Shown here piece by piece: positions 1-13,419 of a DNA stretch of 14,076 bases (within the stretch, counting starts at the first letter, position 1; each line of letters opens with the position of its first letter). The stretch comes from a virus (Duplodnaviria; Heunggongvirae; Uroviricota; Caudoviricetes), in the IMG/VR virus record IMGVR_UViG_2541047688_000003, one strand, 5' to 3'. The notes below the pieces were generated by a model, which searched no databases, was not told where the DNA came from, and worked only from the letters and a program-made list of their open reading frames with translations. The translations under genes and the position numbers were made by a program.

Positions 1-1143
1 CTATGCTGTTTTGATATCTACGATAATCCAGTCTTTACCACGATCATCATTGTATCGGTCGGTCATTTTTCTGGATTTATGACCTAACAACTTTTGCGTA
101 TCCAGACCCTGTTCCCGATATAACCGTTCTGACAGAGATCGCTGCTCATGAAATGTGGGCGCAGTTCCTGGCTCCCATTTTATGCCACATTTTTCCCTGG
201 CCTTTTTAAAAGCCGTTGTAAGAGTATTTGCAGACACCTGGTCTCCTCTGTTTGCTTGAGAGGTAGTGTGACGGTAATGGACCAGATATTTACTAACAAC
301 AGCATCCCTGCACTGAGATATAACTTCACGAAGGGTAATATTCAGAGCATCGCATTTCAGGTTAAGCGGAATAGCAAGTTTTGAACCGGTTTTTTCCTGA
401 GTAATGTGCAACATGTCGTCCCAGATATCAGAGAATTTCAAATTGCAGATATCGCCTAAACGTTGTCCAGTGACAAGAGCAAGTAGCATCCCGCATTTTA
501 AATAGGGCTGCCGTCTGCTTACGCTGTCAAATATTGCCTGCCATTCGGGCAGTGATAATCTTTGGCGGTTTACTCGATTTCGCGGTTGTTTTGTTGCCTG
601 CGCTGGGTTAAATCCTGGCGGAACATGTCCTGCGTGTTGTGCTTCTTTGAAGACGTCGATCAACACCATTCTCACGACTTGCGCCATCCTGTTATGACCT
701 TCAGCCTTTACAGCATCAATTATTTCGGCAATATCAAGTGCGGTAATATCCTTGAGGTGTTGCATTCCACAATGCTCACGGAAAAGACGAATGGGTTTGC
801 CTTTTTGCCGATAGGAGTTGGGTCTTAGTTCATTATGTTGCAGCCTGTCCTCCTGGATAGAAATATATTTATCAAGCCATTCTGTCACCGTAATGTCTGA
901 GCGCCTGCCTTTCATTCTTTCTAGACGCTCATTGACGCTTAATATTTGTCGGGTACGTTGTTCAGCAATAATGGTATTTGCTTCAGTAGCAACTTGTTTT
1001 GCTTCATTCTCATCAGTTCCTAAGCTATGAAAACGACCGGATAGTGGATGTTTGTATTGCCAATATACCTTTCCGGTTCGCTTATCTAATTTGCAATATA
1101 AATTGGGTATAGAGATTTTGTGAGATCGGGGTCTAGCAGCCAT
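1..1143 (-). CDS. int: Phage tyrosine integrase, lambda Int-like architecture (380 aa)
   Basis: Full ORF with ATG at 1141-1143 and TAG at 1-3. C-terminal catalytic region carries HxxR and LGHKSRKMTDRY (tyrosine nucleophile context). Overlapped at its 5' end by an excisionase-like gene, as in lambdoid phages. Sequence is not lambda Int itself. Confidence 0.9.
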   Translation of the reverse strand: MAARPRSHKISIPNLYCKLDKRTGKVYWQYKHPLSGRFHSLGTDENEAKQVATEANTIIAEQRTRQILSVNERLERMKGRRSDITVTEWLDKYISIQEDRLQHNELRPNSYRQKGKPIRLFREHCGMQHLKDITALDIAEIIDAVKAEGHNRMAQVVRMVLIDVFKEAQHAGHVPPGFNPAQATKQPRNRVNRQRLSLPEWQAIFDSVSRRQPYLKCGMLLALVTGQRLGDICNLKFSDIWDDMLHITQEKTGSKLAIPLNLKCDALNITLREVISQCRDAVVSKYLVHYRHTTSQANRGDQVSANTLTTAFKKAREKCGIKWEPGTAPTFHEQRSLSERLYREQGLDTQKLLGHKSRKMTDRYNDDRGKDWIIVDIKTA

Positions 1144-1369
1144 CAGCGATTATCCGTTGGAGTTTTGGGTTTGCGTTTATTGGGAGTTGCGGTTCTGCAA
1201 GCGTTCCTACAAAACGGGAATTTCGGTCAATCATCCAGTAGCGACCAACTTTTATAGCGGGTGGGGCCATCATTTTCCCTTGCGCGTATTTTTTCAGAAC
1301 TCGCTCACTTGGTGCTAAGTCCCCAAATTCTTCTTTAGCCCAGTCCTGTAAAGTGATTAGTCGAGACAT
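1133..1369 (-). CDS. xis: Excisionase-like small basic DNA-binding protein (78 aa)
   Basis: Strong RBS (GAGGAGG) 5 nt upstream of ATG at 1367-1369. Overlaps the int start by 11 nt. Motif APPAIKVGRYW resembles the lambda Xis PPPVKDGREY region. Confidence 0.75.
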   Translation of the reverse strand: MSRLITLQDWAKEEFGDLAPSERVLKKYAQGKMMAPPAIKVGRYWMIDRNSRFVGTLAEPQLPINANPKLQRIIADGC

Positions 1370-1508
1370 TTGTCCTCCTCTTAGCTGCTGAGGGAGTTTG
1401 TGACCGATATATCTGACATGATATTAAGCTCATGGCAGGTACATCTCTTGACTGGTCATAGAGATAAATTTAATGCTGAGAAATGCAGTATTGAATTTAT
1501 CAATTTTT

Positions 1509-1748
1509 CTATTTCCTGCGTATGGCACGTAACTTCTTAATGTGTTCTGCTGTTTCGATCTCTTCAGCTATCCGATCTGCGTCAGCTTTATTCACAGGTT
1601 CAAAGTCATGATTAAAGCGGAACATGCTGGCGATACATGTTCTGCCTTTTCGGATGTAGTGAACTTTGTTGTGAGTGGAACGCAGGATTTTGCAGGGAGT
1701 GCCGTGGTGGTCGACGTACCAGGTGTTAGGGTAAATCACTCTGAACAT
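1509..1748 (-). CDS. Hypothetical small phage protein (79 aa)
   Basis: ORF with ATG at 1746-1748, co-oriented and tightly packed in the leftward operon. Function not recognised. Confidence 0.5.
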   Translation of the reverse strand: MFRVIYPNTWYVDHHGTPCKILRSTHNKVHYIRKGRTCIASMFRFNHDFEPVNKADADRIAEEIETAEHIKKLRAIRRK

Positions 1749-1773
1749 TCTTGACCTTGTGTTGTGCGGATTG

Positions 1774-2058
1774 TTATTCAGTGCCGATATTTACCTTTAT
1801 CGCGTATACCTTTACCGGTTTATCACCGAAGTGCGGATGTGTGATTGTCTTCACTTCATATCCGTCATACGGAACATCAACTCTGCGGCTGGAATCGTCG
1901 CGCTTCGGATATCCCTTTGTGATAATCAGGCGGTCATGCTTACGGTTAACGAGGCGCTTTTTCCAGTAGTCATTACACAGGCGATACTCTTCCGTTTTCT
2001 CTCCGCGAATCATGGCATCGAAGTATTCACCTTTAACGGCAAGTTGCAGGTTAGCCAC
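1774..2058 (-). CDS. Hypothetical phage protein (about 94 aa, GTG start)
   Basis: GTG at 2056-2058 preceded by AAGGAG 6 nt upstream and located 2 nt after the upstream gene's stop. The longer ORF to 2142 would overlap the upstream gene by 92 nt. Confidence 0.5.
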   Translation of the reverse strand: MANLQLAVKGEYFDAMIRGEKTEEYRLCNDYWKKRLVNRKHDRLIITKGYPKRDDSSRRVDVPYDGYEVKTITHPHFGDKPVKVYAIKVNIGTE

Positions 2059-2791
2059 GGTTAACTCCTTGCTGTGTGGCGTCGAGTAATAAATCCCACA
2101 ACCGCTGAGAGCAATTTCCGCATGTACAGCGTTGACCCACAACGTTTATCGCGTTGCTGATTTCCGGCGTTACCTGTTTAGGAACCATAACCCAACCATC
2201 CGGAGTTACCGGAAGCGAGAACGGCAGCACATCTCTGTGAACAAGTTTTTGCTGTGACAGGTTATCCAGAACTTTCTGTACTGCTGCATCACCGAATACA
2301 CCAAGCGCATCTGCCATAACTCCTACAACCTGATAAGCCTCAGCGCATACCGTGGATAAACCATCCGGAATTACCGGAGAGTTGCCGGGTTCTTTAATGT
2401 GCAAGCGAGGCTCACCATCTTTTGGCTCAGGCCACTGGCGCTCCATGTTGATCTTCAATTTATCTTCCATAGCAACGGTAATTTCAGCATCGCTGATGCC
2501 AGCACGGCGCTGTGCATCCCACAACAGAAACTGCATATCAGCCCACTCGCTAAGATCGTCTGGTTCGGCTGCGGCTTCCAGTGCCTCTTTTGAGAGGTGT
2601 TTCAGTGGACCAATGGGGCCAACGCAGCCAAATGTGGAGTCAGACCATTTGGCATGCTCGTGGCGAATCTGTTCGCGTTCCAGTGATGCCAGTGCAATTC
2701 GTGCTAGTTCCATTTGTTCGCCACGAGTAAGCCCGTTTTCAAGCGGATTTTTAATGAACAATTCAATACGTTCTTTGGTAATAGTGGTCAT
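2051..2791 (-). CDS. Phage accessory protein (246 aa); N-terminal region recalled as DUF550/MazG-like nucleotide pyrophosphohydrolase-type, C-terminal module with PVxPDG motifs
   Basis: ATG at 2789-2791 with GAGGA RBS, ATGA overlap with the upstream gene's stop. Domain assignment is from memory of prophage protein families and is unverified. Confidence 0.7.
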   Translation of the reverse strand: MTTITKERIELFIKNPLENGLTRGEQMELARIALASLEREQIRHEHAKWSDSTFGCVGPIGPLKHLSKEALEAAAEPDDLSEWADMQFLLWDAQRRAGISDAEITVAMEDKLKINMERQWPEPKDGEPRLHIKEPGNSPVIPDGLSTVCAEAYQVVGVMADALGVFGDAAVQKVLDNLSQQKLVHRDVLPFSLPVTPDGWVMVPKQVTPEISNAINVVGQRCTCGNCSQRLWDLLLDATQQGVNRG

Positions 2792-2997
2792 GTGTTAATC
2801 CTCAAAACTTTATGCCCGGGCGCAAAAGTACGTGTTTTGTCTTTGCTTATTCGCCACCCGTCTTTACGGGCCTCTTTTGCACAACCAGACCATGACGTAC
2901 CGATATACTCACCGAAGTCTGGCACTGGATATACACCTTCCGTACACTGGCGACAATCACAATAGAGATGCATGGTGTAACTTGCGGCAATAGCCAT
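2788..2997 (-). CDS. Small Cys/His-rich putative zinc-binding protein (about 69 aa)
   Basis: Internal ATG at 2995-2997 sits 3 nt after the upstream gene's TGA with a purine-rich RBS. HLYCDCRQC and SWSGC motifs. Alternative start at 3039 would overlap the upstream gene by 41 nt. Confidence 0.5.
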   Translation of the reverse strand: MAIAASYTMHLYCDCRQCTEGVYPVPDFGEYIGTSWSGCAKEARKDGWRISKDKTRTFAPGHKVLRINT

Positions 2998-2998
2998 A

Positions 2999-3532
2999 TC
3001 ACTCTCTTTTTCCCTGAAGCATGGCAGCGTGGCAGGCATCCTCTACGCCCTTAACTGCATCTGCGCAGTAGTTATAGCGATTGCATTCCACTAACTTCTG
3101 CCTGAGATTTTCAATTGCTTGCGCGACATCAGCCTGTATTACAGGAACTGGCGGAACGGCTGTCTGCTGCTCTCGAACGTCATTAGTCGCTATCGGTTCT
3201 GCTGCCAACTGACTGGCATATTTGTTAATGGTAACGATAAGCTCTTGCTCAGCCTCATCCAGACAATCACCGATACCTCGCCTGTCGCCGTCAAAATCAT
3301 CGAAATCAGCACGAACTCTGGCAAATTTCAGGATTGCGGACAACACCTCACCAGGAATTACCGGAGAGTTGGTTGACGTTTCCGAAATTTCCCGAAAATT
3401 ATTGGTTGACGAATTCGCGTTTTCCCGAAAGTTTCCGGCATGAAGCATAGCCGCGCGGCAGGCGTTCCAGCCTCTCACCTCTGCAATAGCGGCAACAGCA
3501 TCGACCGCGTACATGCTAAGAGGGTTAGGCAT
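2999..3532 (-). CDS. Phage accessory protein with low-complexity in-frame tandem repeat (about 177 aa; start uncertain)
   Basis: Long minus-strand ORF. Candidate starts are ATG 3530-3532, GTG 3557-3559 and TTG 3605-3607 (the ORF-track start). Contains the NSPVIPGE motif shared with the neighbouring gene. Confidence 0.55.
   Translation of the reverse strand: MPNPLSMYAVDAVAAIAEVRGWNACRAAMLHAGNFRENANSSTNNFREISETSTNSPVIPGEVLSAILKFARVRADFDDFDGDRRGIGDCLDEAEQELIVTINKYASQLAAEPIATNDVREQQTAVPPVPVIQADVAQAIENLRQKLVECNRYNYCADAVKGVEDACHAAMLQGKRE
3371..3430 (-). repeat. Imperfect tandem direct repeat (about 30 nt, 2 copies), in-frame within a CDS
   Basis: ggttgacgtttccgaaatttcccgaaa followed by ttggttgacgaattcgcgttttcccgaaa. 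Encodes FRENANSSTNN / FREISETSTNS on the minus strand. Confidence 0.6.
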
Positions 3533-3549
3533 TGGTTTTTCTTCAGGTA

Positions 3550-3804
3550 CTACTGGCACTGGCTTGGCATATATAGCGGCTGAACATACCAACCCTTTGA
3601 TAACCAACTGTCAGCAATGTTTTTACTCCTCGTTATTGCCGGAATACCTAAGCCATTGTCTGAATGCAGCCATGCCACCGGATTCTCTTCCAGCGATGCC
3701 AGAGCAATTTCATAAGCCCGGCGCTCAACATTGTCTCGCACATCCAAACTGCTGATACGCTCTTTGATTTCTTTAATCAGTTCTTTGTCGGTAAAAGTGC
3801 TCAT
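3550..3804 (-). CDS. Hypothetical phage protein (84 aa) sharing an IALASLE module with the 246-aa protein
   Basis: ATG at 3802-3804 preceded by GGAG with a 7-nt spacer, 1 nt after the upstream TGA. The longer track ORF to 3825 overlaps the upstream gene. Confidence 0.6.
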   Translation of the reverse strand: MSTFTDKELIKEIKERISSLDVRDNVERRAYEIALASLEENPVAWLHSDNGLGIPAITRSKNIADSWLSKGWYVQPLYMPSQCQ

Positions 3805-3805
3805 A

Positions 3806-4570
3806 TCAATCTCCATTGGTATCAATGTTTACAGCCTGACAAGACTCTTTGAGCACCCAGTCAATAGCGTCTTTCCATGCCTCTGTTTCGACTGGTGGAT
3901 TTTCACGCTTAACCTGTTCATAGAAGCGCACTGCTTTAACCAGTCCTTCCGGTACTACTGGTGATGGCTGTTTAGCTTCTAAATCAGCAATTCTGTCAAC
4001 CACGGCATCGACAGCATCTGAAAAGCCGAACCAGTTGCTCCACTCCGGCTCATCCCCGGTTGCTGCAAAGTACATATCTGCTAAAGCAGATTCAGCATGG
4101 TCACGCTCGTTAATGAGTTGCTCTTCGCTTTTCTCCAGTTCAGCAATACGCTTACCCCCATCCGAGATAACACCTTCGTAATACTCACGCTGCTCGTTGA
4201 GTTTTGATTTTGTCTCCTCAAGCTCAACTCTCAGCTTCCCAACAGTAAGAGCAATATCCTCGTTCTCCTGGTCGCGGCGTTTTATGTATTGCTGGTTTCT
4301 TTCCCGTTCATCCAGCAGTGCCAGCACAGTAGCCGGATTGGCTGCGGCGATGAATTCAGCATTGGCCTGCTGTTCCATTTGGAAATCTTCATCGAAACCG
4401 CTTTCTGGATGCGCTCCTTCAATTCTGCAAATGGGAATATATCCAGCAACTTCACGATGAATTAGCGCATAATCACCATCAAATCGGCTCTCTCCATATT
4501 CGAGCGACCACTCACCACACGTTGCTTTTTCTGCCGCTTCACGCAGTGCCTGATAGTTAATTTCGCTCAC
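3806..4570 (-). CDS. Ead/Ea22-like protein (254 aa) with central coiled-coil-like region
   Basis: GTG start at 4568-4570 overlaps the upstream stop (GTGA) with GAGAGG RBS. N-terminus QALREAAEKAT...NAEFIAAANPATVLALLD matches my recollection of the Ead/Ea22-like family. Charged heptad-like middle region. Confidence 0.75.
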   Translation of the reverse strand: MSEINYQALREAAEKATCGEWSLEYGESRFDGDYALIHREVAGYIPICRIEGAHPESGFDEDFQMEQQANAEFIAAANPATVLALLDERERNQQYIKRRDQENEDIALTVGKLRVELEETKSKLNEQREYYEGVISDGGKRIAELEKSEEQLINERDHAESALADMYFAATGDEPEWSNWFGFSDAVDAVVDRIADLEAKQPSPVVPEGLVKAVRFYEQVKRENPPVETEAWKDAIDWVLKESCQAVNIDTNGD

Positions 4571-4788
4571 TTCGAACCTCTCTGTTTACTGATAAGCTCC
4601 AGATCCTCCTGGCAACTTGCACAAGTCCGACAACCCTGAACGACCAGGCGTCTTCGTTCATCTATGGGATCGCCACACTCACAACAATGAGTGGCGGATA
4701 TAGTCTGGTAGTTCAGACGACGCATTTTTATTGCTGTATTGCGCTGTAATTCTTCAATTTCTGATGCTGAATCAATGATGTCCGCCAT
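4567..4788 (-). CDS. TraR/DksA-family C4 zinc-finger protein (73 aa), lambda Orf73-like
   Basis: CCECGDPIDERRRLVVQGCRTCASC gives a CxxC...CxxC C4 finger with the conserved spacing of the TraR/DksA family. Size and position match the TraR homologue recalled in lambda's early-left operon. Confidence 0.75.
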   Translation of the reverse strand: MADIIDSASEIEELQRNTAIKMRRLNYQTISATHCCECGDPIDERRRLVVQGCRTCASCQEDLELISKQRGSK

Positions 4789-4837
4789 CTTTCATTAATC
4801 CCTGAATTGTTGGTTAATACGCTTGAGGGTGAATGCG

Positions 4838-4865
4838 AATAATAAAAAAGGAGCCTGTAGCTCCC
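4838..4865 (-). terminator. Candidate intrinsic terminator or attenuator inside the leftward operon
   Basis: On the minus strand: GGAGC-UACAG-GCUCC stem-loop (plus coordinates 4850-4864) followed by UUUUUUAUUAUU (4838-4849). Stem is short (5-6 bp). Confidence 0.35.
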
Positions 4866-4886
4866 TGATGATTTTGCTTTTCATGT

Positions 4887-5168
4887 TCACCGTTCCTTAA
4901 AGACGCCGTTTAACATGCCGATCGCCAGGCTTAAATGAGTCGGTGTGAATCCCATCAGCGTTACCGTTTCGCGGTGCTTCTTTAGTACGCTACGGCAAAT
5001 GTCATCGACGTTTTTATCCGGAAACTGCTGTCTGGCTTTTTTGATTTCAGAATTAGCCTGACGGGCAATGCTGCGAAGGGCGTTTTCTTGCTGAGGTGTC
5101 ACTGAACAAGCCCCATGTCGGCAAGCATAAGCACACAGAATATGAAGCCCGCTGCCAGAAAAATGCAT
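4887..5168 (-). CDS. Hypothetical phage protein (93 aa as drawn; true start uncertain)
   Basis: ORF with ATG at 5166-5168 but poor RBS. An internal GTG at 5100-5102 overlaps the stop of a 27-codon upstream ORF (see findings). Confidence 0.45.
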   Translation of the reverse strand: MHFSGSGLHILCAYACRHGACSVTPQQENALRSIARQANSEIKKARQQFPDKNVDDICRSVLKKHRETVTLMGFTPTHLSLAIGMLNGVFKER

Positions 5169-5178
5169 TCAGTGGTTG

Positions 5179-5370
5179 TCATACCTGGTCTCTCTCATCT
5201 GCTTCTGCTTTCGCCACCATCATTTCCAGCTTTTGTGAAAGGGATGTGGCTAACGTATGAAATTCTTCGTCTGTTTCTACTGGTATTGGCACAAACCTGA
5301 CTCCAATTTGAGCAAGGCTATGTGCCATCTCAATACTCGTTCTTAACTCAACAGGAGATGCTTTGTGCAT
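5179..5370 (-). CDS. orf63: Lambda Orf63-like protein (63 aa)
   Basis: 63-codon ORF immediately downstream of orf60a in the same order as recalled for lambda. Identity from memory, unverified. Confidence 0.6.
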   Translation of the reverse strand: MHKASPVELRTSIEMAHSLAQIGVRFVPIPVETDEEFHTLATSLSQKLEMMVAKAEADERDQV

Positions 5371-5525
5371 ACCGCCTCCCGTTTATTATTTATCTTCTCA
5401 GCCAGCCGCTGTGCTTTCAGTGGATTTCTGATAACAGAAAGGCCGGGAAATACCCAGCCTCGCTTTGTAACGGAGTAGACGAAAGTGATCGCGCCTACCC
5501 GGATATTATCGTGAGGATGCGTCAT
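5343..5525 (-). CDS. orf60a: Lambda Orf60a-like protein (60 aa)
   Basis: ATG at 5523-5525 overlaps the exo stop (ATGA). Sequence [29 protein letters not shown] matches my recollection of lambda orf60a. Confidence 0.6.
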
Positions 5526-6202
5526 CGCCATTGCTCCCCAAATACAAAACTAATTTCAGCCAGTGCCTCGTCCATTTTTTCGATGAACTCCGGCACCATC
5601 TCGTCAAAACTCGCCATGTACTTTTCATCCCGCTCAACCACGACATAATGCAGTCCTTCACGCTTCATACGCGGGTCATAGTTGGCAAAGTACCAGGCAT
5701 CTTTTCGCGTCACCCACATGCTGTACTGCACCTGGGCCATGTAAGCCGATTTTATGGCCTCGAAACCACCGAGCCGGAACTTCATGAAATCCCGGGAGGT
5801 AAACGGGCATTTCAGCTCAAGGCCGTTGCCGTCACTGCATAAACCATCGGGAGAGCAGGCGGTGCGCATACTTTCGTCGCGATAGATGATCGGGGATTCA
5901 GTAACATTCACGCCGGAAGTAAACTCAAACAGGGCTCTGGCGTCGTTCTCGTACTGTTTTCCCCAAGCCAGCGCCTTAGCGTTAACTTCCGGAGCCACAC
6001 CGGTGCAAACCTCAGCAAGCAGGGTGTGGAAGTAGGACATTTTCATGTCAGGCCATTTCTTTCCGGAGCGGGGTTTTGCTATCACGTTGTGAACTTCTGA
6101 AGCGGTGATGACGCCGAGCCGTAATTTGTGCCATGCATCATCCCCCTGTTCGACAGCTCTCACGTCGATCCCGGTACGCTGCAGGATAATGTCCGGTGTC
6201 AT
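5522..6202 (-). CDS. exo: Lambda exonuclease (Red alpha), 226 aa
   Basis: Translation [40 protein letters not shown]...GFVFGEQWR is essentially lambda Exo by recall. ATGA overlap with bet as in lambda. Confidence 0.97.
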
Positions 6203-6984
6203 GCTGCCACCTTCTGCTCAGTGGCTTTCTGTTTCAGGAATCCAAGAGCTTTCACTGCTTCGGCCTGTGTCAGTTCTGACGATGCGCGAATGTCGCGGCG
6301 AAATATCTGGGAACAGAGCGGCAATAAGTCGTCATCCCATGTTTTATCCAGGGCGATCAGCAGAGTGTTAATCTCCTGCATGGTTTCATCGTTAACCGGA
6401 GTGATGTCGCGTTCCGGCTGACGTTCTGCAGTGTATGCGGTATTTTCGACAATGCGCTCGGCTTCATCCTTGTCATAGATACCAGCAAATCCGAAGGCGA
6501 GACGGGCACACTGAATCATGGCTTTATGCCGTAACATCCGTTTGGGATGCGACTGCCACGGCCCCGTGATTTCTCTGCCTTCGCGGGTTTTGAATGGTTC
6601 GCGGCGGCATTCATCCATCCACTCGGTAACGCAGATCGGATGATTGCGGTCTTTGCGGTAAATCCGGCATGTACATGATTCATTGTCCTGCTCAAAGTCC
6701 ATACCATCAAACTGCTGGTTTTCATTGATGATGCGGGACCAGCCATCAACGCCCACCACCGGAACAATGCCGTTCTGCTTATCAGGGAAGGCGTAAATTT
6801 CTTTCGTCCACGGATTAAGGCCGTACTGGTTGGCGACGATCAACAATGCGATGAACTGCGCATCGCTGGCATCACCTTTAAATGCCGTCTGGCGAAGAGT
6901 GGTGATCAGTTCCTGTGGGTCGACAGAATCCATGCCGACACGTTCAGCCAGCTTCCCTGCCAGCGTTGCGAGTGCTGTACTCAT
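6199..6984 (-). CDS. bet: Lambda Bet (Red beta single-strand annealing protein), 261 aa
   Basis: Translation [44 protein letters not shown]... is essentially lambda Bet by recall. Confidence 0.97.
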
Positions 6985-6989
6985 CCGTT

Positions 6990-7286
6990 TTATACCTCTG
7001 AATCAATATCAGCCTGATGGTGAGCAATGGTTTCAACTATGTACCGGATGTGTTCTGCCATGCGCTCCTGAAACTCAACATCGTCATCAAACGCACGGGT
7101 AATGGCTTTTTTGCTGGCCCCGTGGCGTTGTAAATGATCGATGCATAGCGATTCAAACAGGTGCTGGGGCAGGCCTTTTTCCATGTCGTCTGCCAGTTCT
7201 GCCTCTTTCTCTTCACGGGCGATCTGCTGGTAGTGACGCGCCCAGCTCTGAGCCTCAAGACGATCCTGAATGTAATAAGCGTTCAT
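6990..7286 (-). CDS. gam: Gam, short form (GamS-type RecBCD inhibitor), 98 aa
   Basis: [21 protein letters not shown]...[10 protein letters not shown] matches the C-terminal 98 aa of lambda Gam. Own RBS CAGGAG upstream. The N-terminal extension coding sequence is present but out of frame (see findings). Confidence 0.93.
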
Positions 7287-7361
7287 GGCTGAACTCCTGA
7301 AAATGGCTGTGAAAATATCGCCCGCGAAATGCCAGGCTGATTAGGAAAACAGGAAAGGGGG

Positions 7362-7505
7362 TTAGTGAATGCTTTTGCTTGATCTCAGTTTCAGTATTAA
7401 TATCCATTTTTTATAAGCGTCGACGGCCTCACGAAACATCTTTTCATCGCCAATAAAAGTGGCGATAGTGAATTTAGTCTGGATAGCCATAATTGTTTGA
7501 TCCAT
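7362..7505 (-). CDS. kil: Kil (host cell-division inhibitor), 47 aa
   Basis: Internal ATG at 7503-7505 with [55 protein letters not shown] matches lambda Kil by recall. Overlaps the cIII 3' end as in lambda. Confidence 0.85.
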
Positions 7506-7638
7506 TTTTTGGGACTCCTGGCTGATTAAGTATGTCGATAAGGCGTTTCCATCCGTCACGTAATTTACGGGTGATTCGTTCAAGTAAAGATTCGGAAGGG
7601 CAGCCAGCAACAGGCCACCCTGCAATGGCATATTGCAT
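7474..7638 (-). CDS. cIII: CIII (FtsH/HflB protease inhibitor), 54 aa
   Basis: ATG at 7636-7638 with AAGGAG RBS 6 nt upstream. [54 protein letters not shown] matches lambda CIII by recall. Confidence 0.85.
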   Translation of the reverse strand: MQYAIAGWPVAGCPSESLLERITRKLRDGWKRLIDILNQPGVPKNGSNNYGYPD

Positions 7639-7752
7639 GGTGTGCTCCTTATTTATACATAACGAAAAACGCCTCGAGTTGAAGTGGTTTACTGAATTTG
7701 GCCACCTGAACAGAGGTGATATGCTCACCTCAGAACAACACAGGTGCCATAA

Positions 7753-7795
7753 TGTCAACGCCACGATGTTTGACCGTTATTTGCCATTTTCATGC
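7753..7795. repeat. IS21 terminal inverted repeat (istB-proximal end)
   Basis: tgtcaacgccacgatgtttgaccgttatttgccatttt aligns, with one gap, to the reverse complement of the other end. Confidence 0.7.
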
Positions 7796-7812
7796 CCGCT
7801 AAGATACTTTCG

Positions 7813-9782
<1,970 letters not shown>

Positions 9783-9840
9783 GTTGATGTCCTTTCTGGT
9801 GTGAGAACCTTAAGGAAACAACATGTTGGGTGGAGCGGAC

Positions 9841-9883
9841 AATCCAAATGGTGAATTACCGTCTTATATCACTGGCGCTGACA
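9841..9883. repeat. IS21 terminal inverted repeat (istA-proximal end)
   Basis: Reverse complement reads tgtcagcgccagtgatataagacggtaattcaccattt, matching the opposite terminus. Confidence 0.7.
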
Positions 9884-10026
9884 GCTGGCAGTTGTATGAG
9901 CGCGGAGAGCTTGTTGATGTGCTGTGGGGGGAACTGGAATGGTCTTCCCCGACAGATGACGATGAGCTGCCGGAAGTCACCGGACCTGCGTGGATAGTCG
10001 ACAATGTGGCGCATTATGGCGGATGA
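9884..10026 (+). pseudogene. 3' remnant of a plus-strand gene truncated by the IS21 insertion or rearrangement
   Basis: Open frame runs from the IS boundary to TGA at 10024-10026 (...SWQLYERGELVDVLWGELEWSSPTDDDELPEVTGPAWIVDNVAHYGG) and is followed by a terminator. The frame upstream lies within IS DNA. Confidence 0.35.
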
Positions 10027-10038
10027 AGTATGACGGAG

Positions 10039-10067
10039 ACGGGCGGGCAACCGCCCGTTTCTTTTCC
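10039..10067 (+). terminator. Intrinsic terminator
   Basis: ACGGGCGG-GCAA-CCGCCCGT 8-bp GC-rich stem with tetraloop, followed by TTCTTTTCC. Confidence 0.6.
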
Positions 10068-10127
10068 GGTAAAGGATGTCGCCGTGCTCCTCTTTTTACT
10101 GCGCCGGCTGACGCGGCGCGGCATAAA

Positions 10128-10351
10128 CGCTGCCTGTGGTCAGTGTCCCGCGTCCGGTGGGCACGGGACGGGCGCTTTTACCGCTCCCGGCTGGCGTCGG
10201 TGACAGTGTACGCCAGCCTGTCGCCCTTTTCTGATGAACGCCCTTCAAGCCGCTTTCGCGGCATAGCCTTGCCGTCAGAAAGACGACGGCTGCGGTATTC
10301 CACGGTCGGCCTGACCCGTTACCGGACGCGGTGAACAGCCCACAGGCAGCG
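10128..10351 (+). promoter_or_regulatory. Long imperfect inverted repeat; candidate single-strand promoter (Frpo/ssi-like) or other structured regulatory element
   Basis: Arm 10128-10157 (cgctgcctgtggtcagtgtcccgcgtccgg) is about 25/30 complementary to arm 10322-10351. Arms are about 165 nt apart in a GC-rich noncoding region upstream of the methyltransferase gene. Confidence 0.4.
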
Positions 10352-10409
10352 GGGAACGGGCACCACAGGGGTGCCCTCCCGGTGCCCTCTGTAAGAGAAG
10401 GAGTTTTGT

Positions 10410-11093
10410 ATGTCCCGTTTTGTCCTCGGTAACTGCATCGATGTTATGGCCCGTATTCCTGATAACGCCATTGATTTCATACTGACTGACCCGCCGTACC
10501 TCGTCGGTTTCCGTGACCGTTCCGGGCGCACCATTGCCGGTGATGTTAATGATGACTGGCTGCAACCTGCCAGCAATGAGATGTACCGCGTACTCAAAAA
10601 AGACGCGCTGATGGTCAGCTTCTACGGCTGGAACCGTGTCGATCGCTTTATGGCCGCCTGGAAACGCGCCGGATTCAGCGTGGCAGGGCACCTCGTGTTC
10701 ACCAAAAACTACACATCCAAATCTGCGTATGTCGCGTACCGTCACGAATGCGCTTACATCCTGGCAAAGGGCAGTCCGGCCCGGCCCCGTAACCCTCTGC
10801 CGGATGTGCTGGGCTGGAAATATTCAGGCAATCGTCATCACCCGACGGAAAAGCCCGTTACCAGCCTGCAACCACTGATTGAGAGCTTCACACATCCGAA
10901 CGCGATTGTGCTGGACCCGTTTGCAGGCAGCGGCTCAACCTGCGTCGCTGCCCTCCAGTCCGGACGCCGGTATATCGGTATCGAGCTGCTTGAACAGTAT
11001 CACCGTGCCGGACAGCAACGACTGGCCGCCGTGCAACGGGCCATGCAGCAGGGGGCCGCGAATGATAACTGGTTTGAACCGGAGGCTGCGTAA
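10410..11093 (+). CDS. Orphan DNA amino-methyltransferase (DPPY motif, beta-class N6-adenine/N4-cytosine), 227 aa
   Basis: AAGGAG RBS 7 nt upstream. Catalytic motif TDPPYL near the N-terminus and SAM-binding motif DPFAGSGST near the C-terminus. No restriction endonuclease partner is visible in the window. Confidence 0.9.
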   Translation: MSRFVLGNCIDVMARIPDNAIDFILTDPPYLVGFRDRSGRTIAGDVNDDWLQPASNEMYRVLKKDALMVSFYGWNRVDRFMAAWKRAGFSVAGHLVFTKNYTSKSAYVAYRHECAYILAKGSPARPRNPLPDVLGWKYSGNRHHPTEKPVTSLQPLIESFTHPNAIVLDPFAGSGSTCVAALQSGRRYIGIELLEQYHRAGQQRLAAVQRAMQQGAANDNWFEPEAA

Positions 11094-11315
11094 ATGAACT
11101 ATGCCGGACACGAAAAACTTCGCGCCGACGTGGCGGAGGTGGCCAACACCATGTGTGACCTTCGGGCCAGGCTGAACGATATGGAGCATCGCTGTCGCTT
11201 TGATTCCGATGTGCTTGTTGAACGCCTGACACGCCAGACGCTGTATCGCGCCAATCGCCTGTTCATGGAGGCGTATACCGAAATTCTGGAACTGGATTCC
11301 TGCTTCAAAGATTGA
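11094..11315 (+). CDS. Hypothetical protein (73 aa)
   Basis: ATG immediately after the methyltransferase stop codon, GGAGG 10 nt upstream. Co-oriented in the same gene block. Confidence 0.6.
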   Translation: MNYAGHEKLRADVAEVANTMCDLRARLNDMEHRCRFDSDVLVERLTRQTLYRANRLFMEAYTEILELDSCFKD

Positions 11316-11328
11316 GAAGGAGACGAGA

Positions 11329-11763
11329 ATGTACGGAACATGCGAAACGCTATGCCGGAAGCTGGCAGCAAAGTATTCGGGAGACACGCCACTGATGCTG
11401 GTTATCTGGTCCCCGGAAGAAATTCAGGCCCTCTCTGACGGAATGGATATTGCCCTGACCGATCATGAAATCAGGACTGTCCTGGCGCGCCTGGAGGACA
11501 TCCCGGAAGACCAGCGGACTGAATCCGGTATTTCTTCCGGCGTGGCGATGGAGATCATCAATAACGTGAGCGAAAACCGCCAGGTGACTGTCCCTGCTGA
11601 ACTGCTGGCGTCCCTGATTCAGACCGCTGAACAGGCATTGTGGAAACGTGAATGGGCCGCCTGGGATCATGGCCTCGCCGTCCCGGAATGCGTCACCCGC
11701 CGTCAGGCGGTGGTTAATCAGGTCCGCATCCTGCTGAAAAACAACACACACGAAAACGACTGA
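11329..11763 (+). CDS. Plasmid leading-region protein, DUF1380-like (144 aa)
   Basis: AAGGAG RBS. Shares the motif R(Q/H)VTVPA(E/V)(L/M)L and a near-identical start region with the 13466-13888 ORF. Family name from recall, unverified. Confidence 0.75.
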   Translation: MYGTCETLCRKLAAKYSGDTPLMLVIWSPEEIQALSDGMDIALTDHEIRTVLARLEDIPEDQRTESGISSGVAMEIINNVSENRQVTVPAELLASLIQTAEQALWKREWAAWDHGLAVPECVTRRQAVVNQVRILLKNNTHEND

Positions 11764-11766
11764 TGT

Positions 11767-11790
11767 TATCGCCGCCTCCGGGCGGCGATA
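11767..11790 (+). other. Perfect hairpin without U-tract between genes
   Basis: TATCGCCGCC-TCCG-GGCGGCGATA (10-bp stem, 4-nt loop) immediately after the stop at 11761-11763. No T-run follows. Confidence 0.5.
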
Positions 11791-11807
11791 CAGGGAGTTC
11801 ATGAATT

Positions 11808-12578
11808 ATGAATGAAATGCTGAATGCACTGATTTATCGCCACGCCAGCAACCTGTTGCTGGCGCAGGGCTGGCCGGAAGAGACGGATGTTGACCAGCGT
11901 AACCCGAAGTATCCGGGCTGGATCAGCATTTACGTGCGGCTGGATGCGCCCCGGCTGGCGACGTTACTTATCAAGCGTCACGGCGGCGTACTGCCGCCGC
12001 TCCTGGCCTCTGCCATTCAGAAACTGACCGGAACCGGAGCGGAACTTGTTCTGTCCGGCAGTCAGTGGCAGTCGCTGCCGGTACTTCCGGCAGACGGAAC
12101 GCAGGTGTCTTTCCCGTATGCCGGTGAGTGGCTGGCAGAGGACGAAATCAGGGCCGTTCTTGGTGCGGTACGCGATGCAGTATGCAGTGTCAGTTACCAG
12201 GTGGCAGAAGATGCGCGGCGTATCCGTGCGGCGCTGACCACCACCGGTCAGACGTTGCTGACCCGCCAGACGCGCCGCTTTCGCCTGGTGGTGAAGGAAA
12301 GCGATCACCCCTGCTGGCTCGATGAAGACGACGAAAACCTGCCCGTGGTGCTCGATGCCATCCTGAACCGGGGCGCTCGTTTTTCGTCGGTGGAAATGTA
12401 TCTGGTCAGTGAGTGTGTGGAGCATATCCTGTCCAGTGGGCTGGCCTGCGATATGCTGCGTATACCGGATGAACCGCCCCGCCGCTGGTTTGACCGTGGT
12501 GTTCTGCGGGAGGTGGTCCGGGAAGCCCGGAACGAAATCCGCAGCATGGCGGATGCCCTGGCAAAAATCCGGAAATGA
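11808..12578 (+). CDS. Uncharacterised protein (256 aa)
   Basis: Long plus-strand ORF with AGGGAG upstream. No recognisable motif. Embedded between antirestriction-type genes. Confidence 0.75.
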
Positions 12579-12585
12579 TGACGCT

Positions 12586-12611
12586 GGCGGGGAAAAATCT
12601 CCGCCTTTTCC
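12586..12611 (+). terminator. Intrinsic terminator
   Basis: GGCGGGG-AAAAAT-CTCCGCC stem (one G-U pair) followed by TTTTCC, 8 nt after the stop codon. Confidence 0.5.
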
Positions 12612-12720
12612 AGTCGGTCCCCGGAAAGAGCAAAAGGATGTCGCCGCAGGCTCCTCTTTACCCGGCCATGTGGGGCATGGCCTTGTGGGTTTTCAGTTAT
12701 GTGGCCTCAGCGTCGTGTGC

Positions 12721-12956
12721 GGGCTGTGCCGTGCCTCCATCGTAGCCGGGCTTCTGCGGGCGGGTTGCAAGGTAAGGTGAACCGCTGCGGTCACCCGGTC
12801 CCTCCTTCCCGTCTGCCGTGATTTTCCGGTCGTTCACCCGCTCAGATTTCGCGGTCTCACCCTCCAACTCCCGTCAGCCGTGCGCGTCAGGCTGCGGCTT
12901 CCCTTGCGCCCTTGCAACCCTGCAGGCCCGGCAAAGATGGAGGCACGGCACCGCCC
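12721..12956 (+). promoter_or_regulatory. Second long imperfect inverted repeat (about 50-nt arms); candidate single-strand promoter or structured regulatory element
   Basis: Arm 12721-12772 pairs with arm 12910-12956, including a perfect 14-nt core gccgtgcctccatc / gatggaggcacggc. Lies upstream of klcA. Confidence 0.4.
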
Positions 12957-12993
12957 GGTGTCGCGGAATATGTGAACAACGGAGGAAAACATC

Positions 12994-13419
12994 ATGCAAT
13001 ATGCGAAACCTGTCACTCTGAATGTTGAAGAGTGCGACCGTCTCTCCTTTCTGCCTTACCTGTTTGGCCTGGATTTTCTGTATGCCGAGGCATCTGTGTA
13101 CACGCTGGCGAAAAAAATGATGCCGGAATATGAAGGCGGATTCTGGCACTTCATCCGCCTGCCGGACGGTGGCGGTTACATGATGCCGGATGGCGACCGT
13201 TTTCATCTGGTTAACGGTGAAAACTGGTTTGACCGTACCGTGAGTGCTGATGCCGCAGGCATCATCCTTACCTCCCTTGTGATTAACCGCCAGTTGTGGC
13301 TGTACCACGACAGCGGGGATGCAGGGTTGACACACCTGTACAGGATGCGCGATGCGCAGTTGTGGAGCCACATCGAATTTCACCCCGAATGCAACGCGAT
13401 TTACGCGGCACTTGACTGA
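12994..13419 (+). CDS. klcA: ArdB/KlcA-family antirestriction protein (141 aa)
   Basis: GGAGG RBS. Motifs [30 protein letters not shown] and [12 protein letters not shown] parallel ArdB/KlcA proteins as recalled. Confidence 0.85.

Follow-up and report, generated by a model that had tools for sequence, protein, structure and literature searches.

What is the same short block of sequence doing at two places in one stretch of DNA, each time beside a long inverted repeat? The stretch, a virus record assigned to the Caudoviricetes (IMG/VR IMGVR_UViG_2541047688_000003; 14,076 nucleotides (nt), called the window here at its full length), carries two such repeats with their flanks, unit 1 and unit 2, and next to each stands a copy of the block, termed the box. 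Comparison with related plasmids indicates that the box is a genuine cis element, strongly conserved and apparently not yet described, which marks the upstream boundary in two known classes of single-strand promoter. Both units are already known, and the novelty is the box. Three classes of single-stranded DNA (ssDNA) promoter were found on pESBL and F by donor-depleted RNA-seq and 5' rapid amplification of cDNA ends: class 1 comprises Frpo/ssi1-3, class 2 lies 5' of klcA and ardA, and class 3 lies 5' of M.EcoGIX (Wen et al. 2025, PMC12672017). A subsequent preprint uses the names ssp1a/b, ssp2 and ssp3 (Fraikin et al. 2026, 10.64898/2026.01.09.698686).

Within the window the box follows the pattern AAAGGATGTCGCCG, then 2-4 nt, then CTCCTCTTT(TT)AC, and its two copies and their halves are located as follows.

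10071-10099, + strand: box copy 1, AAAGGATGTCGCCGTGCTCCTCTTTTTAC
10071-10084, + strand: half 1 of copy 1, AAAGGATGTCGCCG, the same in F and IncK ssp3
10086-10099, + strand: half 2 of copy 1, GCTCCTC + TTTTTAC, anti-Shine-Dalgarno-like
12633-12661, + strand: box copy 2, AAAGGATGTCGCCGCAGGCTCCTCTTTAC
12633-12646, + strand: half 1 of copy 2, AAAGGATGTCGCCG, where F and IncK read AAAGGAAGTCGCCG
12650-12661, + strand: half 2 of copy 2, GCTCCTC + TTTAC

Both copies have the exact 14-nt core followed by GCTCCTCTTT(TT)AC, with a spacer that differs in length by 2 nt, and the core occurs at these two sites only within the window; the sequence and a repeat search thus bear out the shared 14-mer reported in an earlier note on this DNA. 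The earlier note had drawn the block wider, at 10061-10097 and 12605-12660. The box copies do lie there, but the leading cttttcc(g/a)g represents the T-tracts of upstream terminators and is not conserved elsewhere (cttttccgg is the tail of the unit 1 terminator), and at the second site the T-tract stands 23 nt from the box, so that a non-homologous spacer had been included. An exact repeated 14-mer was found in 31% of first-order Markov random sequences of the window's length and composition, and four of 200 shuffles held two or more matches to the core. The window alone therefore proves nothing, and significance rests on conservation.

Loci from GTDB were gathered via the methylase protein, with one genome per species, and then scanned for the box. 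It was found at the left edge of units in F, in an IncK plasmid (L002) and in upwards of 40 GTDB loci from about 12 genera, including Escherichia, Klebsiella, Citrobacter, Lelliottia, Salmonella arizonae, Yersinia pestis, Erwinia, Pantoea, Edwardsiella, Raoultella, Buttiauxella and Apirhabdus. The genes downstream are methylase, klcA and ardA genes, and the box is in gene orientation every time. In F it adjoins both ssp3 and ssp2, and in the IncK plasmid it stands ahead of the methylase, klcA and ardA units, where the alignment of the two class-2 copies starts at the box. When units were counted blind to the box, 19 of 33 methylase units carried it, as did all ten stand-alone ardA units and, within 480 nt, 17 of 19 klcA units; in the other two a tandem partial duplication intervenes and the box lies 609 nt upstream. 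One box variant was present in 2860 PLSDB plasmids, all from Enterobacterales and 87% of them conjugative, and among the matches listed it lay in unannotated DNA in nearly all. A pattern scan of metagenomes returned 120 loci, all in the same contexts except for about five chance matches in genes of soil organisms. The earlier note had reckoned with chance similarity should homologous elements lack the block; it is found in most homologous units, and is therefore not due to chance.

The family consensus reads WAAGGATGTCGCC, 0-7 nt, GCTCC[G/T]C-TTT, with GATGTCGC as the family-wide invariant core of half 1. The left boundary is sharp in the conservation profile, positions -25 to -6 showing 30-55% majority and AAGGATGTCGC showing 77-100%. 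The A-A-G ahead of GATGTCGC, which was not forced by the search pattern, reaches 84, 95 and 77%, and the T-rich tail is the variable part (+7 to +12 at 48-91% majority). Spacing to the terminator and to the hairpin varies, so that the box behaves as an independent module, and it is kept where the adjacent hairpins have diverged to 52-65% identity, as in the most distant pairs. On its own it has no structure, either as RNA or as DNA of the transferred (T) strand (z of about 0). The box is thus a linear, unstructured motif of about 25-30 nt just outside the hairpins, common to cassettes whose hairpins cannot be aligned, and the claim of most weight is that a motif of about 25 nt at this position is under strong purifying selection.

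In a profile search with nhmmer, class-3 units aligned to class-2 units across the box only (E values of 4e-5 to 2e-3), with no whole-unit homology between the classes beyond it. Detectable similarity between the two classes is therefore confined to the box, which agrees with the published account of the hairpins and extends it, and the common origin of the whole units that the earlier note had suggested is unsupported, nothing outside the box aligning between them. The note had also placed each copy between an intrinsic terminator and an inverted repeat. This is true in the window, where the terminators fold at -23.7 and -14.4 kcal/mol, but across the family the association is with the hairpin unit and not with the terminator: no terminator precedes the box of the IncK ardA unit, and the sequence upstream differs freely from locus to locus.

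The distribution also has clear limits. No box was found within three mismatches alongside the class-1 units of pUTI89, the IncK plasmid and F, and in the pUTI89 class-1 units the resemblance is limited to 9 nt (CTGTCGCCGG) of a small hairpin loop. Class 1 (Frpo/ssi1-3) is like the window units in its leading-region location, its strand logic and a hairpin that rebuilds -35 and -10 elements, and unlike them in having no box. Class-3 hairpins of Burkholderiales keep the core of the hairpin and lack the box; their apical core (cttcaagggctttcgcggcataaac ... ttattccacgtcccttgaccg) is retained in Achromobacter, Paraburkholderia and Bordetella (L034-L043, L046), where it lies about 250 nt ahead of the methylase start at 4001 and the methylases are M.BceJIII-like. 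Class 3, being present in Betaproteobacteria, thus has a far greater age and spread than the box.

Behind the box, promoters and genes have been exchanged. The methylase gene may follow either a class-3 or a class-2-like hairpin, the box being kept in both cases, one upstream flank with its box leads into a klcA-type unit in Citrobacter (L012) and into an ardA-type unit in Salmonella (L014), and a class-3 hairpin stands ahead of a DUF1281 gene in a metagenome contig (L125). In at least four klcA/ardA cassettes the large hairpin has been lost by clean deletion across its base (L009 6214-6345, L024 6213-6345, L029 6253-6373, L089 13205-13335). These natural 'promoter-less' ssp2 variants keep the box, the small hairpin, the 5' untranslated region and the gene, as would be expected of a box that lies outside the palindrome. 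The IncK plasmid has a matching DUF1281 gene end with terminator and box (15240-15352), and its relic of terminator, box and small-hairpin start (15296-15352) forms with the intact copy (17471-17530) a direct repeat of about 57 nt, the two copies flanking a 2.1-kb parA/parB segment.

The window from about position 7750 corresponds to an IncF (pUTI89/F-type) leading region. Positions 9800-13100 match pUTI89 and many IncF plasmids at 100%, more than 5000 PLSDB records match, and the earlier note was correct in calling this a plasmid leading region. According to the pUTI89 annotation, the gene order is IS21, a truncated DUF1281 gene, unit 1, the DNA methylase, a small open reading frame (ORF), DUF1380, a 256-amino-acid ORF, unit 2, a KlcA/ArdB-type anti-restriction gene, DUF1380 and more genes, then ssb, psiB and hok toward oriT; in the F layout, oriT/traM lies downstream of the methylase unit. 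The leading-region genes are all on the + strand, and the T strand is therefore the window's - strand. The features of the two units other than the box are given below.

10039-10066, + strand: intrinsic terminator at the end of the IS21-truncated DUF1281/yfaB remnant (stem 10039-10046/10051-10058, T-tract 10059-10066; RNA fold -23.7 kcal/mol)
10101-10119, + strand: small hairpin GCGCCG/CGGCGC between box and main hairpin
10128-10351, - strand: main hairpin of unit 1 (inverted repeat I2), assigned to ssDNA promoter ssp3 (class 3), folding on the T strand
10399-10403, + strand: Shine-Dalgarno (SD) sequence AGGAG preceding the methylase gene
10410-11093, + strand: M.EcoGIX-type orphan DNA methylase gene, first gene of the ssp3 operon (ORF list, pUTI89 annotation, homologues)
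12586-12605 (hairpin) and 12606-12609 (T-tract), + strand: intrinsic terminator after the 256-amino-acid gene (RNA fold -14.4 kcal/mol)
12660-12695, + strand: small hairpin ACCC-GGCCATG / CATGGCC-GGGT, then TTTTC, terminator-like on + (RNA fold -17.1 kcal/mol)
12720-12957, - strand: main hairpin of unit 2 (inverted repeat I1), assigned to ssDNA promoter ssp2 (class 2)
12981-12985, + strand: SD sequence GGAGG preceding the klcA/ardB-type gene
12994-13419, + strand: klcA/ardB-type anti-restriction gene (ORF list, pUTI89 annotation)

Gene context, the T-strand hairpin and homology all identify unit 1 as a class 3 (ssp3) promoter. Its T-strand DNA folds at -108.9 kcal/mol, against -79.2 +/- 4.4 for shuffles (z = -6.8), and it shares 96% mean column identity with the F and IncK ssp3 copies. 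A -35-like CTGACC is predicted at 10311-10316, and a mismatched -10 bubble would form at 10142-10147 (T-strand GACACT) opposite 10332-10339. Unit 2 is likewise identified as class 2 (ssp2) by the klcA/ardB gene downstream, by a T-strand hairpin of -103.5 kcal/mol (z = -4.4) and by 90% mean column identity with F ssp2; its putative -35 is TTGCAA at 12765-12770/12912-12917, and its putative -10, TACGAT on the T strand (12739-12744), would be mismatched opposite AAAGAT (12933-12938). With their downstream genes and T-strand hairpins alike, the window units correspond to ssp2 and ssp3 of F and pESBL, the two plasmids that supply all the transcription start site and induction data for class 3 (PMC12672017). 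A sigma-70 consensus scan of both strands gave no promoter in or around the box and no canonical promoter at unit 1, a terminator scan matched 12669-12687 within the small hairpin of unit 2, and over the ssp3 hairpin Rfam returned only a sub-threshold 'Erse' match (18.7 bits against a gathering score of 138) that was not reproduced in 11 related loci.

Several observations concern the hairpins themselves. Class-2 and class-3 hairpins have short apical words in common, TTTCGCGG (10253-10260, 12862-12869) and GGCTGCGG.TTCC (10288-10300, 12897-12910), which are too short for profile detection and may hint at a remote common ancestry of the hairpins. In NZ_AP028311.1 (L057), an IS110-family element of about 1.67 kb, ISShdy1 (660-2325), sits exactly in the ssp3 apical loop (...gccgctttcgcg | IS | gcatagcc...), equivalent to window position ~10259/10260; its non-coding end has two target-like copies of 'tgtttcgcgga', which suggests guide-RNA-directed targeting of the ssp3 single-strand promoter. 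Just past the ssp2 hairpin, GGTGTCGCGG at 12957-12966, which klcA-type units conserve, is a directly oriented look-alike of half 1 (GGATGTCGCCG), and at the corresponding place ardA-type units have the inverse CGACATCG, which can pair with half 1 (7 bp; probabilities up to 0.99, L009 6840). DUF1281 (yfaB) has a shorter GC-rich hairpin of its own upstream (pUTI89, L001 7990-8170; IncK, L002 14160-14340) with class-2-like arms gccgtgcc...ggcacggc, which may be a further single-strand promoter variant. A box-like GCTGTCGCCGGCCTCCTC upstream of yfaB lies inside the apical part of another hairpin and was not treated as a true box.

The remainder of the window is of a different kind. Positions 1-7750 contain a lambdoid prophage early-left region (integrase, bet/exo/gam), with an Rfam match to the Lambda cIII thermoregulator at 7593-7651 on the - strand and an exact 18-nt direct repeat, GGAATTACCGGAGAGTTG, at 2367-2384 and 3354-3371. 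At about 7750-7813 the prophage part abuts IS21, followed by the pUTI89-type leading region. Neither the PLSDB plasmids nor the complete E. coli genomes contain this junction, which therefore represents a rare rearrangement or a chimeric assembly. Among the compared plasmids, pUTI89 has an Rfam match to the antisense RNA AS-pc01 (L001 16148-16245, - strand), and in the IncK plasmid a group II intron separates the klcA operon from the ssb unit (L002 21690-23988, - strand).

None of the known factor motifs compared with the box was recognized in it, and the common binding or processing site suggested by the earlier note is a hypothetical one. Nus boxA and the lambda nut site (GCUCUUUAACAA or CGCUCUUA core plus boxB) show only a CGCUUUUAC / CUCUUUAC resemblance, with a variable T-rich tail and no Rfam match, and the GTTGTAAC core of Tus-Ter sites reads GTCGCCGG in the box. 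AGGATGT is the sole stretch common to the box and to what we take to be the TerC and TerG sequences. The T-strand sequence of the box, 5'-GTAAAAAGAGGAGCACGGCGACATCCTTTACC, has ACATCCT in common with the true IncK oriT nic region; compared with the MOBP (IncI/IncP) nic consensus YATCCTG|Y, however, the box reads ACATCCTT where the IncK nic region reads ACATCCTG|T, the G at -1 being changed, no relaxase-binding repeat is adjacent, and the box is also present in F, which is MOBF only. A G4-type primase ssi is not supported, neither the unit 1 T-strand box nor its flank containing CTG. The hexamer AAGCGG, which we take to mark phiX174-type primosome sites, occurs in GCTCCGC variants only (27 of 44) and in neither window copy.

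A small ORF starting at the box ATG is excluded by the change to AAG or ACG in F and IncK copies and by the lack of Pfam matches for ORFs over the units. An intrinsic terminator, with its hairpin and T-tract, explains the cttttccRg part and not the box, and identity with class 1 Frpo/ssi fails on sequence and on the class-1 units having no box. Look-alikes of ops/RfaH, REP, the DnaA box, LexA, IHF and integron attI/attC sites each fail on the defining core, the EcoBI site TGA-N8-TGCT fits the Citrobacter variant only, and mimicry of the 16S 3' end is confined to window copy 2. No Rfam family reached its gathering score over the box or the units. In a full-text literature search for the box string, the matches checked were irrelevant (primers and the like) and no paper on the element was found, nor was a box outside the hairpins mentioned in the main texts of Wen et al. 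2025 and Fraikin et al. 2026.

The best explanation is that the box is the upstream-boundary module (in gene sense) of ssp2 and ssp3 cassettes, lying at their 3' end on the transferred strand. More specifically, and with low confidence, we tentatively propose that it acts as a boundary or insulator linking translation of the first gene to the firing of the cassette's own single-strand promoter, with half 1 read by a sequence-specific partner. In this proposal, folding of the long hairpin would bring the anti-SD CTCC half beside the ribosome-binding site (RBS), with which it would pair. On the incoming T strand this pairing would close the folded unit and cover the RBS template, and the CTCC half could help to peel the nascent RBS from the template after passage of RNA polymerase. 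RNA entering from upstream, by terminator read-through or on the established double-stranded plasmid, would include the box and have its RBS masked, and RNAs begun inside the right arm of the hairpin would be without the box and translatable. The expected partner of the GATGTCGC half could be a protein, either on the exposed single strand between terminator and promoter hairpins or on the read-through RNA.

Consistent with this proposal, the CTCC of half 2 is the complement of the GGAG found in every downstream SD. In the predicted fold of unit 1, CTCCT-CTTTTTAC (10087-10099) pairs with GTAAGAGAAGGAG (10391-10403) as the closing helix of a four-way junction; the minimum-free-energy helices on the T strand are 10087-10091/10399-10403 and 10096-10099/10391-10394, with pair probabilities of 0.8-0.99. 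For comparison across the family, 46 units (L001-L052) were folded as + RNA, either as 'read-through' transcripts (from the box to ATG+30) or as 'promoter-initiated' transcripts (from the estimated start to ATG+30). The SD was unpaired to a mean of 0.13 in read-through RNA and 0.33 in promoter-initiated RNA (Wilcoxon p = 2e-4, a value inflated by the phylogenetic relatedness of the units, which are not independent), and in unit 1 RNA it was unpaired to 0.00 with the box and 0.46 without. In every E. coli-type methylase unit, and in three of four scored methylase units whose hairpins are class-2-like, the SD paired with the CTCC of the box. These folds suggest, as a possible general rule, that in most cassettes a left-flank segment masks the SD of the first gene in read-through RNA and leaves it free in promoter-started RNA. 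Masking of the RBS from the left flank thus looks like a general cassette design, which half 2 of the box would perform in some.

Long-range anti-SD masking of the RBS is exemplified by the fold-back inhibition of hok-family mRNAs. The arrangement proposed here is alike in that a far-upstream CTCC pairs with the RBS and the 5' end of the RNA decides on the mask; it is unlike in that the mask would depend on promoter choice and not on RNA processing, and in being predicted by folding, for a subset of units only.

A number of results, together with the inflation of the Wilcoxon p value, weigh against the boundary proposal. In ardA-type units the SD pairs with a separate TCCTCCA just past the box, in Citrobacter and Klebsiella klcA units with a CTCT further in, and in E. 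coli-type klcA units, including unit 2, it pairs locally with or without the box. Native duplexes of box half 2 and SD showed no gain over non-native or shuffled ones (permutation p = 0.77, mean z = -0.25), half 2 being no more specific for the SD than any C/T-rich 20-mer. Half 1 had no consistent partner in T-strand folds of 40 distinct units, its partners varying by unit. Both window copies lie behind terminators, and RNA containing the box should therefore be rare. Seven class-3 units of the Klebsiella/Raoultella lineage have no box; since such lineages exist, the box is accessory and not required for promoter function. RBS masking leaves the family-wide conservation of the box unexplained, and that of GATGTCGC in particular. 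Co-variation between half 2 and the SD was considered and rejected, as the T/G position tracks gene class (AGGAG with T, CGGAG with G) but is confounded by ancestry and broken by unit 2.

A second possibility, nearly as likely as the first, is that the incoming single strand offers the box, in the SSB-poor stretch between hairpins, as a sequence-specific landing site for a putative host or co-transferred DNA-processing factor that would act in priming, helicase loading or the timing of complementary-strand synthesis. The box would then be a dedicated recognition site at the entrance of every ssp2/ssp3 cassette, at which the putative factor sets the timing of unfolding, replication or silencing. 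A near-invariant, linear GATGTCGC without structure or consistent partner would be expected of such a site, and the variable spacing to terminator and hairpin and the restriction of the box to Enterobacterales are in keeping with it. Moreover, complementary-strand synthesis in the gene direction copies the box right before meeting the hairpins, and 3'-to-5' enzymes of the UvrD/PriA type would enter the hairpin from the box side. Synthesis has been found to stall where the ssp2 stem ends, a roadblock in F that UvrD has to resolve, with ssp3 posing none, and the leading-region loci all convert 60-90 s later than expected, for which ssp2 alone is insufficient (10.64898/2026.01.09.698686). However, ssp3 has the box without a roadblock and ssp2 has both, so that the box does not determine stalling, and the rifampicin data show that the delay arises without new synthesis of any plasmid factor (10.64898/2026.01.09.698686). 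The absence of the primase trinucleotide CTG from the unit 1 T-strand box also counts against a landing site. The same is true of AAGCGG, presumably the PriA-site hexamer, which falls on the polymorphic G/T position, and we know of no ssDNA-reading replication factor with the specificity of the box. Priming signals of the ssi kind have historically been mapped in plasmid leading regions; the phiX174- and G4-type signals are like the box in being single-strand cis elements by hairpins, whereas the box has no conserved hairpin of its own and no CTG in unit 1.

It is unlikely that half 1 serves as a CsrA site in + RNA, at which a CsrA dimer would bridge half 1 and the GGA of the SD and silence read-through transcripts. 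AAGGAUGU does resemble what we take to be the CsrB repeat, CAGGAUG, and the consensus from systematic evolution of ligands by exponential enrichment, RUACARGGAUGU. Both window copies and 77% of unique contexts contain AAGGA, GGA is present in all downstream SDs, some ardA-type flanks have a tandem GAAGGATAAGGATG, and the Burkholderiales units have no box. In copy 2, CTCTTT (12654-12659) is predicted to pair with AAAGAG (12625-12630), placing half 1 with its AAGGA in the loop, and crosslinking and immunoprecipitation confirms GGA/ANGGA in loops as the CsrA signature (PMC5207318). The invariant positions, however, are GA.GTC.C and not the GGA that CsrA strictly needs: in 23% of contexts GGA is changed to TGA or CGA (AATGATG, TACGATG or ATTGATG) with GATGTCGC still kept, and on this ground the box falls short of a CsrA binding site. 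RNA containing the box would also lie behind a terminator. The likeness to CsrA sites and CsrB repeats thus consists in AAGGAUG(U) and its loop position in unit 2, and the difference in GGA not being the conserved part, a quarter of units lacking it.

Use of the box as a recombination joint for the exchange of promoter and gene cassettes, via a dedicated recombinase or short homology, is similarly improbable. Mosaic breakpoints coincide with the box in the Citrobacter klcA-type and Salmonella ardA-type units, hairpin and gene are reassorted in the methylase units and in the metagenome contig with DUF1281, and the IncK relic and intact copies flank the 2.1-kb parAB insertion. Breakpoints at a conserved block are nevertheless expected, homology being detectable only there; the IncK breakpoint lies about 50 nt downstream of the box and not inside it, and the box has no dyad symmetry, no core-type architecture and no consistently linked recombinase. 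That the box is a functionless, slowly decaying ancestral remnant kept alike by gene conversion is very unlikely: some lineages do without it and the hairpin-deleted units may keep it simply as sequence outside the palindrome, but it shows little or no divergence between plasmids with hairpins at 52-65% identity or between otherwise unalignable classes, its immediate upstream flank is random, and a 25-nt island constant across genera could not be maintained by gene conversion without selection.

Single-strand promoters, which turn on anti-defence genes before an incoming conjugative plasmid has become double-stranded, control the first minutes of plasmid establishment, through the anti-restriction, SOS-inhibition and methylase genes that decide the survival of resistance plasmids on entry. 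The three promoter classes date only from 2025, when their sequences were reported to be unrelated, and the box is common to two of the three and to their sub-variants, its contexts showing a shuffling of promoters and genes behind a constant boundary. The combination of box, hairpin and strong RBS served here as a sequence tag that found methylase, klcA, ardA and DUF1281 cassettes. If the recognition-site reading were true, the box would add to plasmid establishment a level of cis regulation not seen before, separate from the hairpin promoters, and would serve as a tag for new promoter classes. Should the box prove inert, the cost of checking is small, the units being known already; in F it offers a mutational target of about 25 nt, separable from the hairpins, that could reveal RBS gating, factor loading or the timing of strand conversion.

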